A stretch of DNA of 64,000 nt, taken from contig CAZIWN010000001.1 in assembly GCA_964543265.1 (NCBI GenBank), positions 232,977-296,976 on the forward strand, given 5' to 3'. Below, in pieces: positions 4,993-64,000 of this stretch (positions are counted from its first letter, which is position 1; each line of letters opens with the position of its first letter). The notes under the pieces are model-generated. The model saw only the letters and a list, made by a program, of their open reading frames with translations, made no database searches and was not told the origin of the DNA. Both the position numbers and the translations under genes were made by a program. The stretch comes from an uncultured Candidatus Saccharibacteria bacterium. GTDB taxonomy: Bacteria; Patescibacteriota; Minisyncoccia; UBA6257; 1-14-0-10-40-38.

Positions 4993-5580
4993 ATGAAAAA
5001 AATAAAAACAATATTATTTGTATCGTTTGGGGTAATTTTCGCCTCAATAATAATAGCCAAAGCTTTCACTGAACCAATCAACACATCAATAAATCAAAGT
5101 ATTAAGGTTCCAATTAATATTGGACAATCTCCTCAATTTAAAGAGGGAGGATTGGGTGTAAACTCTGGTAAAGCTGATAATGGATTAATTATAGTAAATA
5201 CAACATCTCCAGGAGCAGAGGGTTTTGGTATCGGAGTTAAGTCTCCGTCAGAAAAACTGCAAGTAGAAGACGGAAACATCAGAATCACTAACGGAAACAT
5301 AGTGACCCCCATTAGCGGATCGGGAATTATAGATAGTTATCTTACGGCAACCACAACAAGCACATCAACAATGCAATGGTCAAATATTGCTTGGCTTAGC
5401 ATCCCAAGAGTAGACATAGTAACTGGAAGTGGAGCAAATTGTCTTAAAATTTGGCCAAGTTGCCCAGCTGGTTGGACAGAATATTCTCAAGAAATTTTCA
5501 GTGACACCTGCGCTTTATATGATGGAACATATAAATATATGGCTACTCGCACTTGTTATCAAAATTTCAACCCAAACTAA
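4993..5580 (+). CDS. secreted hypothetical protein, paralog of the previous gene
   Basis: Signal peptide. Motif GIGVKSPSEKLQVEDGNIRI. C-terminal Cys pattern CLKIWPSCPAGW...C..C. Only 3 bp from the previous gene. Confidence 0.5.
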   Translation: MKKIKTILFVSFGVIFASIIIAKAFTEPINTSINQSIKVPINIGQSPQFKEGGLGVNSGKADNGLIIVNTTSPGAEGFGIGVKSPSEKLQVEDGNIRITNGNIVTPISGSGIIDSYLTATTTSTSTMQWSNIAWLSIPRVDIVTGSGANCLKIWPSCPAGWTEYSQEIFSDTCALYDGTYKYMATRTCYQNFNPN

Positions 5581-5617
5581 ACAATATAAAGCTTTTGTTT
5601 GAGTATTTATTATAAAA

Positions 5618-6553
5618 ATGAAAAGATACCTTAAGGCGTTTCTGATAATTTTAATTATAGGCCTTTTTTCTATAATCTTAGTTAAAAAATCACTAAGCGG
5701 ATCATCTGGAAATATTACTGGATGGGTGTGGAGCGGATCATTTAATGATCAATATAATGGTTGCATGTTTTCACCGGAAAACTGCGGAAATTCTGGCTGG
5801 GTTTCATTGTCATCCTCAAACGACTATGCAGGAAAAGATCCAAACGGAGCAACTTATGGATTAAACGTCCCTTCAACAGATGGACCCGTTACGGGATATA
5901 TTTGGAGCTCTAATCTTGGATGGATAGATTTCCAACCAATCAATGGATTTCCAACAACTGGATGTAAGCCAACCCCGTGCCCAGATTATGGCGTAAAAAG
6001 GGTTGGAGATGATTTTTTTGGTTGGGCCAAAATACTTAGCATGACTGGTGCGGATGAGGGTTGGATTAAATCATCTGGAATAGCAAATGATGGATCGAGT
6101 TATGGAGTAACGGTAGATCAAATAGCTCAAACCGTTAGTGGAAAAATGTGGTCAAACGACATAGGTTGGCTTGATGTTAACGGGACTTTTTCTAATCCAC
6201 CATGCGACCCAGCCACAGACCCATCCTGTGCCCCTCCGCAGATTGGTTTAAATTCAACATGCTCAGGAACACCAAATCCTGCATATATTTCAACCGGAGG
6301 CAATATAAACTGGAAAGCAACTGTAATTAGCGACGGGGTTCCTCCATACACTTATTCCTGGACATTCACACCGGCACCAGATAGTAAAACCGGCTCAAAT
6401 GATCAAATATCAGCCAAATATTCTGTTCCGGGTCTAAAATCAGCTACGGTTGAAATCCTAGACAGCGTTGGCAGTACAACCTCATCGACCTGCAATGTGG
6501 ATATGCTTAAAACTGGAAAAGTAAAAGAAACCATACCTCTTCCGTTAGAATAA
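5618..6553 (+). CDS. secreted hypothetical protein with internal G(W/Y)xWS..N.GW(I/L)D repeats
   Basis: N-terminal anchor. Four degenerate ~40-aa repeats (GWVWSGSFND.., GYIWSSNLGWIDF, GWAKIL..DEGWIKSSG, KMWSNDIGWLDVNG). Cys-rich. Confidence 0.5.
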   Translation: MKRYLKAFLIILIIGLFSIILVKKSLSGSSGNITGWVWSGSFNDQYNGCMFSPENCGNSGWVSLSSSNDYAGKDPNGATYGLNVPSTDGPVTGYIWSSNLGWIDFQPINGFPTTGCKPTPCPDYGVKRVGDDFFGWAKILSMTGADEGWIKSSGIANDGSSYGVTVDQIAQTVSGKMWSNDIGWLDVNGTFSNPPCDPATDPSCAPPQIGLNSTCSGTPNPAYISTGGNINWKATVISDGVPPYTYSWTFTPAPDSKTGSNDQISAKYSVPGLKSATVEILDSVGSTTSSTCNVDMLKTGKVKETIPLPLE

Positions 6554-57301: not shown

Positions 57302-57337
57302 ACAAAAAAAACACCCCATATGGGGTGTTTTTTTGTT
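57302..57337. terminator. bidirectional terminator between convergent genes
   Basis: aaaaaaaacaccccatatggggtgtttttttg. Confidence 0.7.
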
Positions 57338-57348
57338 TTCTATAAAAT

Positions 57349-57906
57349 TTACAAAGCCCTAGCAACCAATCCTATAGCCAGTATTCCAATAAAATTAGAA
57401 ATTAAAGAAATAGGAATAAACCAAGTAGTCTTCATTTTTGAAAAACCCAACAAGCTAATCCCCAATTCATCTGGAAAAGGAGAAGCGATAATAAGAACTC
57501 CAATAACAAAAGCAAACCATCTAAACAACCTCAATCTAAAAAAAGCTCTAACTCTTTTACCAGCTCCTTGGTGTTTTAATAATTCGCTTAAGTGCTCTGA
57601 AAATCTGTCTTTAAAAAATCTAAATATAACTAAATCTCCAATAACCGCACCTAAAGATCCCAAAATGGCAGTTACTAAAACAGAATCAACCCTAGCAATC
57701 TCTCCCAAGGCAACTATTGCCGGAGCAGTTGTAAAAGCGGAAGTAAAAAATATTCCAGCTATAAAACTTCCAAGAAATTCCAGCTCCCTAGTAGAAGCCA
57801 ATAAATCCATCAAAATACCAGTCTTAACTAAAAGAACGGCAATTATAATGCTAAAAAAAATTATTACTAAATCTTGAAGTAAAAATATCTTTTGACGCTT
57901 AGACAT
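57349..57906 (-). CDS. YqaA/DedA-family (VTT-domain) small membrane protein
   Basis: SFIAGIFFTSAFTTAP...AILGSLGAVIGDLVIFRFF resembles E. coli YqaA. Preferred over the overlapping plus-strand ORF. Confidence 0.45.
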   Translation of the reverse strand: MSKRQKIFLLQDLVIIFFSIIIAVLLVKTGILMDLLASTRELEFLGSFIAGIFFTSAFTTAPAIVALGEIARVDSVLVTAILGSLGAVIGDLVIFRFFKDRFSEHLSELLKHQGAGKRVRAFFRLRLFRWFAFVIGVLIIASPFPDELGISLLGFSKMKTTWFIPISLISNFIGILAIGLVARAL

Positions 57907-59510: not shown

Positions 59511-60029
59511 CTAGATATTTCTAGAATCATACGCCCAATGAAGCATGGCTTGTCTTTGCCTTCTTCTGCAAGACAAATCTAATGACTCGCAATATTTTTT
59601 AATTTGAACCAAGTGTCTTCTTATAGCAACCCATCTTTTTATCTGCCTATCATCTTCTTCCGGAATGCGCCTCCCCATATAATACCTGCAATACCACTCA
59701 AACCATCCCCTAGGATCACTCGAATATATCCAACCCCTCTTTCTCCACTCAGATAAGGGTTGACTGGCATCCACTTTAAAAAAATTAACCTCAATATCTT
59801 TCTTTAGAGACATTTTCGCTTTTTTAAACCAATCCGAAGGATATTCCCCTTTAGCATCATTCATATACTTTCCTCCAAAAACTCCCAACTCCAACATTTC
59901 CTTAGGTGTAAGTTCAGGTTTAAATCTAGGATCAAAATTCTTACCCATTGGTTCAGTTAAATAATATTCATACCCACTCTGCATTTTATTATTCACCTTA
60001 ACCAATTTCTTTTTAAAATTACTTTTCAT
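59511..60029 (-). CDS. hypothetical 172-aa basic protein, last gene of the island operon
   Basis: ORF with W/R-rich segment GWFEWYCRYYMGRR..RQIKRW. No family recognised. Confidence 0.4.
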   Translation of the reverse strand: MKSNFKKKLVKVNNKMQSGYEYYLTEPMGKNFDPRFKPELTPKEMLELGVFGGKYMNDAKGEYPSDWFKKAKMSLKKDIEVNFFKVDASQPLSEWRKRGWIYSSDPRGWFEWYCRYYMGRRIPEEDDRQIKRWVAIRRHLVQIKKYCESLDLSCRRRQRQAMLHWAYDSRNI

Positions 60030-60050
60030 TTTAAAAAAACAAATAAAATA

Positions 60051-61145
60051 CTATATTCCAGATTTTATTCGATTATCTTGCCTACATAACATCTGACAAT
60101 TTTCCGTGACAGTTTTTCCTCCTTCGCGCCAAGGCTTAATATGATCGGCTTCCATATCTTCTATTTCAAAAGTTTTCTTACATTTTTTACAAATACCTTT
60201 TTGACGCTCATAAGTCTCCCTTTTCATTTTTTCAGTGAAAGAGCGGATGTTGAGATATTTTTCTTGTCGAGTCAAAATATAAGGATAAATCCCAGACTTT
60301 TTTGTGACATCTTCGTCTTGCATTAACTCGGTTATTTCTTTTTCTAATTTTTTAGAATCTAACTTTTTATCTTTAAATTCGTTATACAACTCACCCCATT
60401 CTACGTGAGTCATTTCGCGGCGATAATTTGGAAATATTTTTTGTACCCAAGCAATCACATCTTGAAAATATTTCCACAGCTTATCGGCATCTTTATCTTT
60501 CTGATGCTTACCCATATAATCTTCAATTTTGTCATTACTGATCCAGCGCAATACTGTCTCCAAATATTCTTGACGATTTAGCTGCCCACTCACGTAATCT
60601 TTGGCCAGTAGATATGCCGGCGCGTTACTCTTACTGAAATACCTCTTGGCATCGGTTACCCACGGCCCGGAATAAATGGCATTTAAAAGTTCCTGCGGAG
60701 TCAGTTTCTCGCCGGCCGTGTTAATAACCTTAAACCAAGCAAGTTTTTCATCATCCGTGCCTTCGCAAAAATATACCATAAGCGGATAGTCTCGGATTTT
60801 CTTTTTCTCTTCCTCGGTCAAATTCTCAAAATACATCTGATATCCACGATTCACGACGTTAAAATCTCCCGCCAAAAAGTTACAGATACTAACGGTGCGC
60901 TGTTGACCATCAAGAATTTCGAAACTTCCGTCTATATTCTTCACCCAATACATTGCATTCAGCGGGAATCCACCCATCACTGAATTAACGACAGCAATCT
61001 GCTGTTCGGGTTTGTAAATAAACTCGCGCTGATATTTCGGGCGAATATTTAATTTTCCACCATAGCCCACCACGCCCTCCTCTTCACTGTTTTTATATCC
61101 GTCAACTATTTCATGTATTGGAATTTGATGTAATTCTATTTTCAT
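60051..61145 (-). CDS. DUF262 (ParB/GmrS-like NTPase) + C-terminal HNH nuclease fusion; GmrSD-like type IV restriction candidate
   Basis: N-terminal DUF262-type motifs (ILDGQQR). C-terminal HNH CKKCKK...ADHIKPW..GG..ENCQMLC..N. Confidence 0.65.
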   Translation of the reverse strand: MKIELHQIPIHEIVDGYKNSEEEGVVGYGGKLNIRPKYQREFIYKPEQQIAVVNSVMGGFPLNAMYWVKNIDGSFEILDGQQRTVSICNFLAGDFNVVNRGYQMYFENLTEEEKKKIRDYPLMVYFCEGTDDEKLAWFKVINTAGEKLTPQELLNAIYSGPWVTDAKRYFSKSNAPAYLLAKDYVSGQLNRQEYLETVLRWISNDKIEDYMGKHQKDKDADKLWKYFQDVIAWVQKIFPNYRREMTHVEWGELYNEFKDKKLDSKKLEKEITELMQDEDVTKKSGIYPYILTRQEKYLNIRSFTEKMKRETYERQKGICKKCKKTFEIEDMEADHIKPWREGGKTVTENCQMLCRQDNRIKSGI

Positions 61146-61156
61146 ATTATTTTTGA

Positions 61157-61876
61157 TTAATTGTGTTGGACTTTTAGCTTATGCGTCTCATAGCTCAAGT
61201 GATTATCTCTAATATTAGATGCGATTTCTATATATTTTTTATGTTCCTTAATAAAATCTTCAAACAAAACTGGCAATATAAAAGAGTGGTCGTTCCCTCG
61301 ATGAATTTCATTTCTTTTACAAGAATTACAATTAAATGTATCCTTATTAATTTTATTGAACATATTTTCCCTTAATAAGTAAAAAAGTGTAGGCGTATTC
61401 CAAGTTCTTGTATTACAAAAAACACAATTATGAAAAGTCACTAAATATTCATAGCTTTTATTAAGGTCTGGCAATACTACTGCGAGCATGGCATTTGTTC
61501 TACTTGTTTTACCTCCTCTTCTTTTGTCGTTTCTTAGAGAATAAGATATTTCGTTGGGTATCCACTGCTCTTTTTCTATTTTGGTTCTGTCAAACATATT
61601 GGGGGATACTAAAACTATAGTCACAGAACTATCAAAAATTTTACCTTTTAATTTTGTATCAATTGTATCATTTGAAAATTCAGCCAGCGATTCATTATCT
61701 TTTTCACCCTTAAAAATATTATCGCCATTTTTTGTAAGTAATGTTTCTAAAAAATTAACATAATGTCTCGCGGTTATTTTATTGTCGGTATCTTTACCTA
61801 TTTCATAACTAAAAAAATCACTATAGTTATATACATTACTGTCTTTGTGTTTGTAGCTAATAAAAACTTTGGCCAT
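61157..61876 (-). CDS. TIR-domain protein (ThsB/DUF1863-like) with C-terminal CxxC..CxxC segment
   Basis: MAKVFISYKHKD...IVLVSPNMF...EQWIPNEI matches the bacterial TIR pattern. The C-terminus has CVFCN...CNSC. Confidence 0.6.
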   Translation of the reverse strand: MAKVFISYKHKDSNVYNYSDFFSYEIGKDTDNKITARHYVNFLETLLTKNGDNIFKGEKDNESLAEFSNDTIDTKLKGKIFDSSVTIVLVSPNMFDRTKIEKEQWIPNEISYSLRNDKRRGGKTSRTNAMLAVVLPDLNKSYEYLVTFHNCVFCNTRTWNTPTLFYLLRENMFNKINKDTFNCNSCKRNEIHRGNDHSFILPVLFEDFIKEHKKYIEIASNIRDNHLSYETHKLKVQHN

Positions 61877-61880
61877 ACGT

Positions 61881-62318
61881 TTAAGCGATTAATTTTATTA
61901 TTATAACCATTGCTAAGCAAAGAATGCCGTAAAATCCCAGAAGTATTGGGGAGAAAATGGAGGCGAAAAGTGTTTTATCTGCATGAGTTTTAAATTCGCC
62001 AATATTCATAGAGAAATCAATTTCCTCCTCAGGGATTTTTCTTACTTTATCATGCAAACCACGAAATTTACGCTCCAACGATAGAAAGTAACCATCGTAA
62101 ATCCAGAATAAAACTAATAAAATAAAAAACAAAACTGGTGCCCACTTCGCAACATTTAATAAGTCAGAAGTCGATACAGCGAAAAGACCGGCAAGAAGTG
62201 TTATTGACCAACCTCTTAGATAAAACAGGTTTCCACCCATACGATCAATGACCCCCTGGATCATTTGTAAATGAGCAATTTTATTTGGACAATGTTTGTA
62301 TTCTTTTAGATTTTCCAT
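61881..62318 (-). CDS. small 3-TM membrane protein (candidate effector)
   Basis: 145 aa with three predicted TM helices. 4-nt gap to the TIR gene and 1-nt gap to the MTase gene. Confidence 0.45.
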   Translation of the reverse strand: MENLKEYKHCPNKIAHLQMIQGVIDRMGGNLFYLRGWSITLLAGLFAVSTSDLLNVAKWAPVLFFILLVLFWIYDGYFLSLERKFRGLHDKVRKIPEEEIDFSMNIGEFKTHADKTLFASIFSPILLGFYGILCLAMVIIIKLIA

Positions 62319-62319
62319 A

Positions 62320-63390
62320 TTATTTTTTCCTTTTAATTAAAATTCGTGCGTACAATTCTTTATTTGTCCCAGGTAAAATACCACGATGTTTATGCAGAGG
62401 ATCTTTTCTTAATCTTTCTACTTCTGGTGTCTTGTCACCACTATGAGTCTGACCTATAACCTCAAATTGATCGGGATTATATTTATCAATAAAAGTAAGA
62501 GGAACACCCATGACGCCACTATAATCCATAGGAATTTCAGAAACTTTTGATACTTCAATAGCATCATAATTGTCATACTTTGGATATTCTTCAGGTTTAT
62601 AGTTTTTATAAAAAGTCATTTTCTCGTGGCGTTTTAAGGTATCAAGATTCGTGAACCACAAAATACGCCCCATACTAAAATATTTTATACCGTCTACAAT
62701 TTTTTTTCTTGATTCCGTCTCTATGTCATAATCTTTGGGAACCTGAAACCATTTTGTGCCACCATTATCATAACCAAGCCACAATTTATTTTCCTTGATA
62801 AGTTTGAAAATTTCTTTATACGTTATAGCGTTCTGATCACCGAGAATCAAAAACTTTTTCCTATATTCAACAAGTTGTGCCACGTATTCTCGAAATAAAG
62901 AAAACGGCGGATTGGTGACTACAATGTCTGCTTCTTTGAGCAATTCAACACACTCATCGCTTCTAAAATCGCCACCGCCTTTTAAGGGAGCGGATACATT
63001 GGCGTCGTGCTTAAGTAGATACTCTACATCAGCCAAGTCTATAGAACCGTCAGTGTTGCTATCCGGAACTTTATTAATTTCAATCTTTATTGGCTGCTTA
63101 CCTTTAGACCCAGCTATTTTAGGTAGTGACAATTGTCCCCCAATAATTGGCGAACCGCTGCAACTGGTAGTAATCAGTTTCTTGAGTTTTAATTCGTTAA
63201 ATTTAGAAGCAAAATATTTGAAAAAATTGCTTTCAAACGGATCATCGCAGTTACAATACACTACCTTATCATTGAACTGATCTTTATAGTGCTTAAGCTC
63301 TTTTTCGATATCAACAAGCTGGGTATAAAACTCATCTTTTTTTGCCTTGCTTGCCCTATGTAAATTCTTATTTAAAGATTTGGTCGCCAT
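62320..63390 (-). CDS. N6-adenine DNA methyltransferase, EcoRI-methylase-like family
   Basis: DEFYTQ...KVVYCNCDDPFESNFFKYF...DIVVTNPPFSLFREY...KYDNYDAI pattern. Start trimmed to MATKSL because the ORF-track N-terminus is a read-through of tRNA-Ser. Confidence 0.7.
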   Translation of the reverse strand: MATKSLNKNLHRASKAKKDEFYTQLVDIEKELKHYKDQFNDKVVYCNCDDPFESNFFKYFASKFNELKLKKLITTSCSGSPIIGGQLSLPKIAGSKGKQPIKIEINKVPDSNTDGSIDLADVEYLLKHDANVSAPLKGGGDFRSDECVELLKEADIVVTNPPFSLFREYVAQLVEYRKKFLILGDQNAITYKEIFKLIKENKLWLGYDNGGTKWFQVPKDYDIETESRKKIVDGIKYFSMGRILWFTNLDTLKRHEKMTFYKNYKPEEYPKYDNYDAIEVSKVSEIPMDYSGVMGVPLTFIDKYNPDQFEVIGQTHSGDKTPEVERLRKDPLHKHRGILPGTNKELYARILIKRKK

Positions 63391-63408
63391 TGTTTCAATC
63401 AAAATTTG

Positions 63409-63495
63409 CGGTGAGGGCGAGATTCGAACTCGCGATGCCCTTTCGGACATAACAGTTTTCAAGACTGTCGCCTTAGACCACTCGGCCACCTCACC
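63409..63495 (-). tRNA. tRNA-Ser (anticodon TGA), long variable arm
   Basis: Reverse complement GGTGAGGTGGCCGAGTGGTCTAAGGCGACAGTCTTGAAAACTGT-variable arm-GCGAGTTCGAATCTCGCCCTCACCG. Confidence 0.85.
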
Positions 63496-63571
63496 TTAAA
63501 AACAAAGTAAATTTAAACACAAAAACAAGCAAAACTCAACTTTTTACCCCCATATTCCCAACTATCGTTTA

Positions 63572-64000
63572 TTAACCCAAAAACTGTCTCAAATTAGCAT
63601 CTATAGCCCCAGCACCCATAAATACCAAAACACTCTTAGCTTCTAGGTTATTATTTAAAGTTTTAATTACCGATTCAAAATCTGGCGAATAAAAAACTTT
63701 TTTCCTTTTCTTTTTTAATTCTTGAGTTAAAGCAAAAGCATCTTTTGGCTCGGCAAGTTCATGTCTGGCAACAGAAAGTTTTAACGATCCAATTTTTGAT
63801 AAATTATCTTTATCGTCTCTGCCTAAAACTCTATATGCAGGGAGTATTATCGTTAAATCTGAATTAGTAAAAGAAGAAACGAAATCTGGAAAGAGCGCCT
63901 CCAATCTTTTTGCCTGATGCGGCTCAAAAATACAAACTATTTTTTCATTTTTGTGCTTTTCTTTAAAAGCTTTCAAGGTCGCCTTAATTTCTGTTGGGTG
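63572..64000 (-). CDS. murC: UDP-N-acetylmuramate--L-alanine ligase, C-terminal part (5' end beyond window)
   Basis: C-terminal Mur ligase domain, IVCIFEPHQAKR...VLVFMGAGAIDANLRQFLG. Frame open to the window end. Confidence 0.55.
   Translation of the reverse strand, partial: HPTEIKATLKAFKEKHKNEKIVCIFEPHQAKRLEALFPDFVSSFTNSDLTIILPAYRVLGRDDKDNLSKIGSLKLSVARHELAEPKDAFALTQELKKKRKKVFYSPDFESVIKTLNNNLEAKSVLVFMGAGAIDANLRQFLG

Follow-up and report, generated by a model that had tools for sequence, protein, structure and literature searches.

What kind of system is formed by a TIR-domain gene and a gene for a small membrane protein lying side by side in a member of the Patescibacteria, bacteria whose genomes are tiny and in which few defences have been recognised? 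The two genes lie near one end of the window (the whole stretch of DNA analysed here, 64,000 nucleotides). A sequence-only reading proposed a minimal module of TIR signalling and membrane effector, possibly in an alternative or new arrangement. The module itself is borne out: the membrane protein is homologous to the neighbour of a validated type V ThsB from Bacillus thuringiensis (Bt), and the TIR protein belongs to the BdThsB1 class of ThsB proteins. The arrangement is not new, being already type V Thoeris (Yirmiya et al. 2025) and, in PADLOC, the candidate system PDC-M50.

Sequence comparison indicates that the pair, thsF followed by thsB, is very probably a type V Thoeris anti-phage system. 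Type V Thoeris was described in 2025, and the window pair is an additional example, in a CPR bacterium.

Layout of the locus

Five genes run tightly together on the minus strand after a tRNA-Ser gene: methylase, thsF, thsB, nuclease, and an open reading frame of 172 codons (Table 1). The successive gaps, counted from the tRNA gene, are about 17, 1, 4, 11, and 21 nt. Next to tRNA-Ser the run forms a small defence island, into which the pair has been inserted so that it separates methylase from nuclease. Open reading frames and sequence agree with the coordinates and the four-nucleotide spacer first assigned to the pair. The order given in the sequence-only reading, TIR gene first and membrane gene after, must be reversed: both genes are on the minus strand, and the membrane gene is transcribed first.

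Table 1. Features of the thsF-thsB locus, in window coordinates
Feature	Coordinates	Strand	Basis or remark
tRNA-Ser(TGA)	63408-63495	minus	ARAGORN
EcoRI-type N6-adenine DNA methyltransferase	62320-~63390	minus	Pfam EcoRI_methylase 6.7e-140, from residue 42
thsF, 145-aa membrane protein	61881-62318	minus	ORF; PADLOC PDC-M50A; phrog_19896
thsF stop codon	61881-61883	minus	sequence
thsF/thsB spacer, 4 nt ('acgt' on the plus strand)	61877-61880	minus	sequence
thsB, 239-aa TIR protein of BdThsB1 class	61157-61876	minus	ORF; ThsB models
thsB start codon	61874-61876	minus	sequence
ThsB Glu109 codon (GAA), motif QWIPNEISYSL	61550-61552	minus	predicted TIR catalytic glutamate
ThsB C-terminal beta-rich extension, residues ~136-239	61160-61471	minus	pLDDT above 90; aligned to BdThsB1
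GmrSD_N (DUF262) + HNH nuclease	60051-61145	minus	PADLOC REase_II PDLC03418 3.9e-130
172-aa ORF, no family match	59511-60029	minus	ORF

The methyltransferase gene also matches the PADLOC model MTase_II. The nuclease matches Pfam GmrSD_N (7.8e-19) and HNH (3.2e-12), and is predicted to be the type II restriction enzyme that partners the methylase. As listed, the methylase open reading frame has 389 residues and begins within the tRNA-Ser(TGA) gene, and its N-terminus, MAEWSKATVLKT..., is a protein reading of the tRNA gene. Because of this overlap the first 33 codons are probably untranslated; the true start is likely Met34, at 63390. A start 17 nt past the tRNA 3' end leaves no space for a separate promoter.

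Scans of the gene run found promoter-like sites to be no commoner than in shuffled sequence, and found zero terminator-like sites. With no signal above chance in either scan, it is the short spacers that speak for an operon. The edges of the island were sought in two ways: as att-type direct repeats of the tRNA-Ser 3' end, of which none was convincing; and as a change in base composition, where a GC break was absent.

The 172-codon frame at the end of the run matched nothing in Pfam, NCBIfam, PADLOC, PHROGs, or PDB sequences, and its homologue is absent from all 80 thsF loci examined. Homologues with 36–45% identity occur in large phages of Vibrio, Cobetia, Yersinia (YerA41), and Flavobacterium, where they are annotated as hypothetical or 'structural protein'. 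(Farther along, at 57320-57906, two mirror-image frames of 185 codons occupy the same stretch on opposite strands. The minus-strand frame reads as a hydrophobic membrane protein; the plus-strand frame is probably a shadow ORF.)

The two proteins

Three membrane helices are predicted for ThsF. Its hydropathy profile has two strongly hydrophobic segments (residues ~59–74 and ~123–145) and a moderate one (37–55), all contained in helices of the AlphaFold2 monomer model (11–49, 60–94, and 124–144; pLDDT 82, pTM 0.71). The predicted layout comprises an N-terminal amphipathic helix; TM1 (~37–55); TM2 (~59–74); a charged segment (75–122); and TM3 (~123–145). The sequence-only description, a protein made almost entirely of three transmembrane helices, therefore holds for the number of predicted helices and fails for their extent, since only about 60 of the 145 residues are membrane-embedded. 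The rest consists of the amphipathic helix, which is conserved, and the loop/helix region of about 48 charged-segment residues, predicted to be cytoplasmic. Invariant residues occur in both: K13, H16, Q21, R26, and N30 in the amphipathic helix; and D75, E82, R83, R86, R93, and D101-F102-S103-M104 after TM2. Many of them are polar.

All four PADLOC PDC-M50A models match the window ThsF (best 1.3e-38), as does the PHROG family phrog_19896 (9.5e-31; function unassigned in PHROGs). Pfam and NCBIfam gave no usable match to the window protein, and a PDB fold search returned nothing specific. Across the family, a Pfam scan of ThsF relatives yielded sub-threshold matches only (DUF2270, DUF3278, and 8xMP), so the family assignment cannot rest on Pfam. 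By hmmscan, DUF2270 (PF10028) is matched by 28 of 80 family members at E≤1, with a best value of 3e-4 that is still sub-threshold; neither the window ThsF nor the neighbour of the Bt ThsB matches it. The DUF2270 label in the type V preprint is presumably a remote-homology annotation, since hmmscan does not reproduce it, and a DUF2270 match does not discriminate membership of type V Thoeris.

For the second protein, the call of a TIR domain stands. ThsB matches Pfam ThsB_TIR (PF08937; 3e-06, above the family cut-off) and, over residues 2–233, the PADLOC ThsB model PDLC00428 (3.4e-63); PDLC00438 matches also. A further match is to phrog_13658 (1.4e-26; function again unassigned in PHROGs). Because both proteins of the pair match PHROG families, relatives of the pair are, on this evidence, probably carried by phages or prophages as well.

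The ThsB family profile matches one solved structure over its whole length: 9VYL, entitled 'BdThsB1 with NAD' (1.6e-94). The window protein by itself aligns with 9vyl_A at 8.6e-51 and 44% identity, again at full length and including the Cys-rich C-terminal part, and its AlphaFold2 model (pLDDT 87.7) superposes on 9VYL with TM-scores of 0.82/0.87. A literature search for 'BdThsB1' found no paper. The TIR1 protein of B. dafuensis is a characterised ThsB that responds to infection by making a ThsA-activating cADPR isomer (Ofir et al. 2021 preprint).

The catalytic glutamate, which the sequence-only reading left for alignment to settle, is present. E109 is shared by all 73 ThsB relatives; hhalign places it opposite the catalytic E85 of BcThsB from B. 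cereus, for which an E85Q mutant is described (Ofir et al. 2021); and it is conserved also in the alignment to BdThsB1. Homology indicates a catalytically intact TIR domain.

The CxxC..CxxC segment that the sequence-only reading saw in the TIR protein is likewise there, in the C-terminal extension, as C151-x2-C154 and C183-x2-C186. Among ThsB relatives, conservation is at least 90% at C151 and C183, while C154 and C186 vary and are often absent; the Cys-rich tail of some members therefore does not have the four cysteines of a canonical zinc ribbon. Nor is the tail special to this locus, as had been suggested: it is a fold feature of the whole BdThsB1-type clade, which also pairs with ThsA. (A locus-specific sensor add-on was considered for CxxC..CxxC and rejected, as the segment is integral to the fold of the BdThsB1 class and, of its four cysteines, just C151 and C183 are well conserved.) Elsewhere, members of this clade lie beside a SIR2-STALD (SIR2-SLOG) ThsA in Vibrio vulnificus, and also in multi-TIR/SLOG-like loci. 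This pairing with ThsA- and SLOG-type effectors fits a ThsB that generates a signal for exchangeable partners better than one that acts as an NADase effector by itself.

Type V relatives and conservation of the pair

Type V Thoeris consists of ThsB and a three-helix membrane effector, 'DUF2270', renamed ThsF; it was validated in B. thuringiensis DAR 81934 and Bacillus sp. 1NLA3E (Yirmiya et al., bioRxiv 10.64898/2025.12.03.692087). The Bt system protects against phage, uses 3'cADPR as its signal, and is inhibited by the Tad1 sponge; supplied from outside, 3'cADPR harms cells that carry the system and spares those that lack it (bioRxiv 10.64898/2025.12.03.692087). Added 3'cADPR gave no toxicity with the system of Bacillus sp. 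1NLA3E, and in an AF3 model a ThsF heptamer forms a ring-shaped oligomer with positively charged pockets between protomers (bioRxiv 10.64898/2025.12.03.692087).

The window pair connects to this system through the exact ThsB of Bt DAR 81934, which was recovered (P0241) and is 100% identical to the Table S1 sequence (IMG 2624526259). The gene immediately downstream (L090:4773-5198) encodes 141 residues; by adjacency and consecutive IMG gene numbers, its product should be the validated ThsF effector. The window ThsF is 38% identical to this protein over its full length of 145 residues (E 5e-31), and hhalign matches the ThsF family profile to it with a probability of 100% (E 2e-45). Further links run through ThsB: the Table S1 cluster 2742576382, labelled 'DUF2270 - Type V', contains TIRs like the window ThsB, with shared motifs through the C-terminal part; and on plasmids of Klebsiella, Priestia, and Terribacillus, homologues of the window ThsF adjoin homologues of the Bt-type ThsB. 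The surroundings of the Bt system are a typical defence island. Beside the validated genes (L090, 5454-8759) lie a Gabija-like pair, OLD-family AAA/TOPRIM plus UvrD helicase, and a DAC-domain gene.

Searches recovered more than 263 proteins related to ThsF and, in species genomes, more than 546 loci that encode such relatives. Patescibacteria account for most of these loci, but Gamma- and Betaproteobacteria, Acidobacteriota, Myxococcota, and a cyanobacterium are among the hosts listed too. The Patescibacteria clade is unusually conserved (56–91% identity among the 120 matches listed), and appears to be common as well as highly conserved in that group.

Whether homologues of the two genes co-occur in other genomes was a further point raised by the sequence-only reading, and they do. 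At 77 of the 80 loci examined, a ThsB-type TIR frame lies on the same strand within 1.5 kb of the thsF relative; of the three loci without one, two are truncated where their contig ends. This pairing is far beyond chance. The partner comes in two sizes. Directly downstream of thsF, 27 of the 80 fetched loci have a long TIR like the window ThsB; among the 49 remaining downstream frames at the 80 loci, 45 encode short ThsB_TIR proteins. PADLOC model PDC-M50B is matched by 43 of 49 short partner TIRs in related loci. At 13 loci a further, short ThsB stands directly upstream, giving a three-gene form, ThsB-ThsF-ThsB, whose last ThsB is in most cases long; the upstream short ThsB is absent from the window locus. 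(L001, with the short ThsB at 5488-5997, L009, L018, L022, L023, L026, and L027 are among the three-gene loci.)

By homology, these relationships suggest a most likely mechanism. Phage infection would activate ThsB, which would convert NAD+ into a cyclic ADP-ribose isomer. This isomer would most likely be 3'cADPR, because BdThsB1 makes a ThsA-activating isomer and the Bt type V system uses 3'cADPR. Oligomers of ThsF would bind the isomer through their conserved cytoplasmic residues, and signal-bound ThsF would damage the membrane, stopping phage replication by abortive infection. The proposal accounts for the want of a separate ligand-sensing domain in ThsF, since the binding site would be formed within the oligomer by the conserved cytoplasmic segment.

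Rival readings and comparison with known systems

Might the TIR protein itself be the killing effector, depleting NAD+, with the membrane protein as its sensor, anchor, or regulator and no diffusible signal? NADase effector activity is common among bacterial TIR proteins, and the validated ThsF partners come from ThsB clades other than that of the window. The type V preprint itself warns of an NADase possibility for unverified configurations (bioRxiv 10.64898/2025.12.03.692087). However, BdThsB1/TIR1, the nearest relative with a solved structure, makes a signal by which a separate ThsA is activated; the SIR2-STALD ThsA and SLOG-type effectors adjoining the window clade form the pattern expected of an interchangeable generator; and 3'cADPR toxicity in Bt requires the system. 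A TIR effector acting by NAD+ depletion is thus highly improbable here. Least probable of all, to the point of being nearly negligible, is a role outside defence, such as membrane stress or housekeeping through NAD+-derived nucleotides. The biology of Patescibacteria, including the phages of the lineage, is poorly known, which leaves some room for such a role. Nevertheless the pair sits among restriction-modification genes beside a tRNA; its relatives adjoin Gabija-like OLD/UvrD genes, type I restriction-modification genes, and integrases; PADLOC defence models match both proteins; and a homologous pair gives phage protection.

The tightness of the gene run raises the matter of its neighbours. 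Methylase, ThsF, ThsB, and nuclease could form one composite system, in which, for example, the nuclease/methylase controls or answers the TIR signal. Spacers of 1, 4, and 11 nt in a run devoid of terminator-like sites are what such a system would have, and the arrangement recurs: in the closest relative (L001, 4375-9078) the Thoeris genes split the restriction-modification unit as they do in the window, and in L062 (3628-6899) restriction-modification genes of the same type adjoin thsF-thsB. Yet in L062 the methylase and nuclease homologues overlap each other by 4 nt, with thsF-thsB after them and outside the unit, and each module is complete alone by PADLOC models. Moreover, both restriction-modification genes are present at just two of the 80 thsF loci (the methylase alone at one more), which makes coupling unlikely. 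The methylase and DUF262-HNH nuclease are an ordinary type II restriction-modification unit. Defence genes often nest within one another's operons without coupling. A composite system is accordingly quite improbable, and the Thoeris and restriction-modification genes are most likely independent modules. There is a small chance that the Patescibacteria pair answers a different TIR product or a second input, or that it is co-regulated with the restriction-modification genes as a layered unit. If true, a layered unit of this kind would suit ultra-small episymbiotic cells, where cell killing has different consequences.

The reading of the pair as type V Thoeris also bears on other families of membrane effectors. 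The sequence-only reading looked to type II Thoeris, CBASS, and Pycsar for the closest relatives, but neither Macro nor SLATT, nor any other Pfam domain, is present in ThsF. A type II Thoeris effector was rejected, as a Macro match was absent at E≤10 in 32 ThsF members; a SLATT effector (type VII Thoeris) likewise, as SLATT was absent among the best 25 of 49 Pfam families (80 members, E≤1); and a CBASS or Pycsar effector, as Pfam scans of ThsF found no cyclic-nucleotide-binding domain. Type II Thoeris (TM plus Macro effector, His-ADPR signal), SLATT, CBASS, and Pycsar systems share a logic with the window pair: a signal-making enzyme and a membrane-disrupting abortive effector. In contrast to CBASS and Pycsar, the window locus has no adjacent cyclase gene, and ThsF is of another sequence family.

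The PADLOC-DB v2 candidate PDC-M50 pairs a membrane protein (A) with a TIR-like protein (B). The window ThsF matches A, whereas the long TIR of the window does not match PDC-M50B and is matched instead by the ThsB models PDLC00428 and PDLC00438. A literature search for 'PDC-M50' found no paper; the label denotes an unvalidated candidate.

Type I Thoeris supplies the nearest solved relative of the TIR protein. ThsB1 of B. dafuensis FJAT-25496 (9VYL) shares with the window ThsB both the motif QWIPxEISYSL and a Cys-containing C-terminal part. The partners differ: the effector of BdThsB1 is ThsA, a SIR2-SLOG NADase, whereas the window ThsB is paired with the membrane protein ThsF. A SIR2-SLOG ThsA, the hallmark of that pairing, is absent among the genes scanned at 59511-63976.

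Type V Thoeris is the system that the window pair resembles as a whole. Both have two genes, for a ThsB TIR and a protein of about 140 residues with three membrane helices; and among relatives of the window pair, as in the preprint's Table S3, there are three-gene variants in which ThsF is joined by two ThsBs. The gene order differs, being thsF then thsB in the window and thsB then thsF in B. thuringiensis, and the window ThsB falls in a different TIR cluster from both validated type V ThsBs. No new principle is added, for system type, effector family, and likely signal were all described in 2025; what the locus does show is that a TIR-signalling defence module can be recognised from raw sequence alone. 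Two differences from the described type V systems remain for a pair known here from its sequence. Its host belongs to the Patescibacteria (CPR), and type V Thoeris is thereby extended to them. It is nested inside a restriction-modification unit, and the window thus offers a clean natural case of one defence system within the operon of another.
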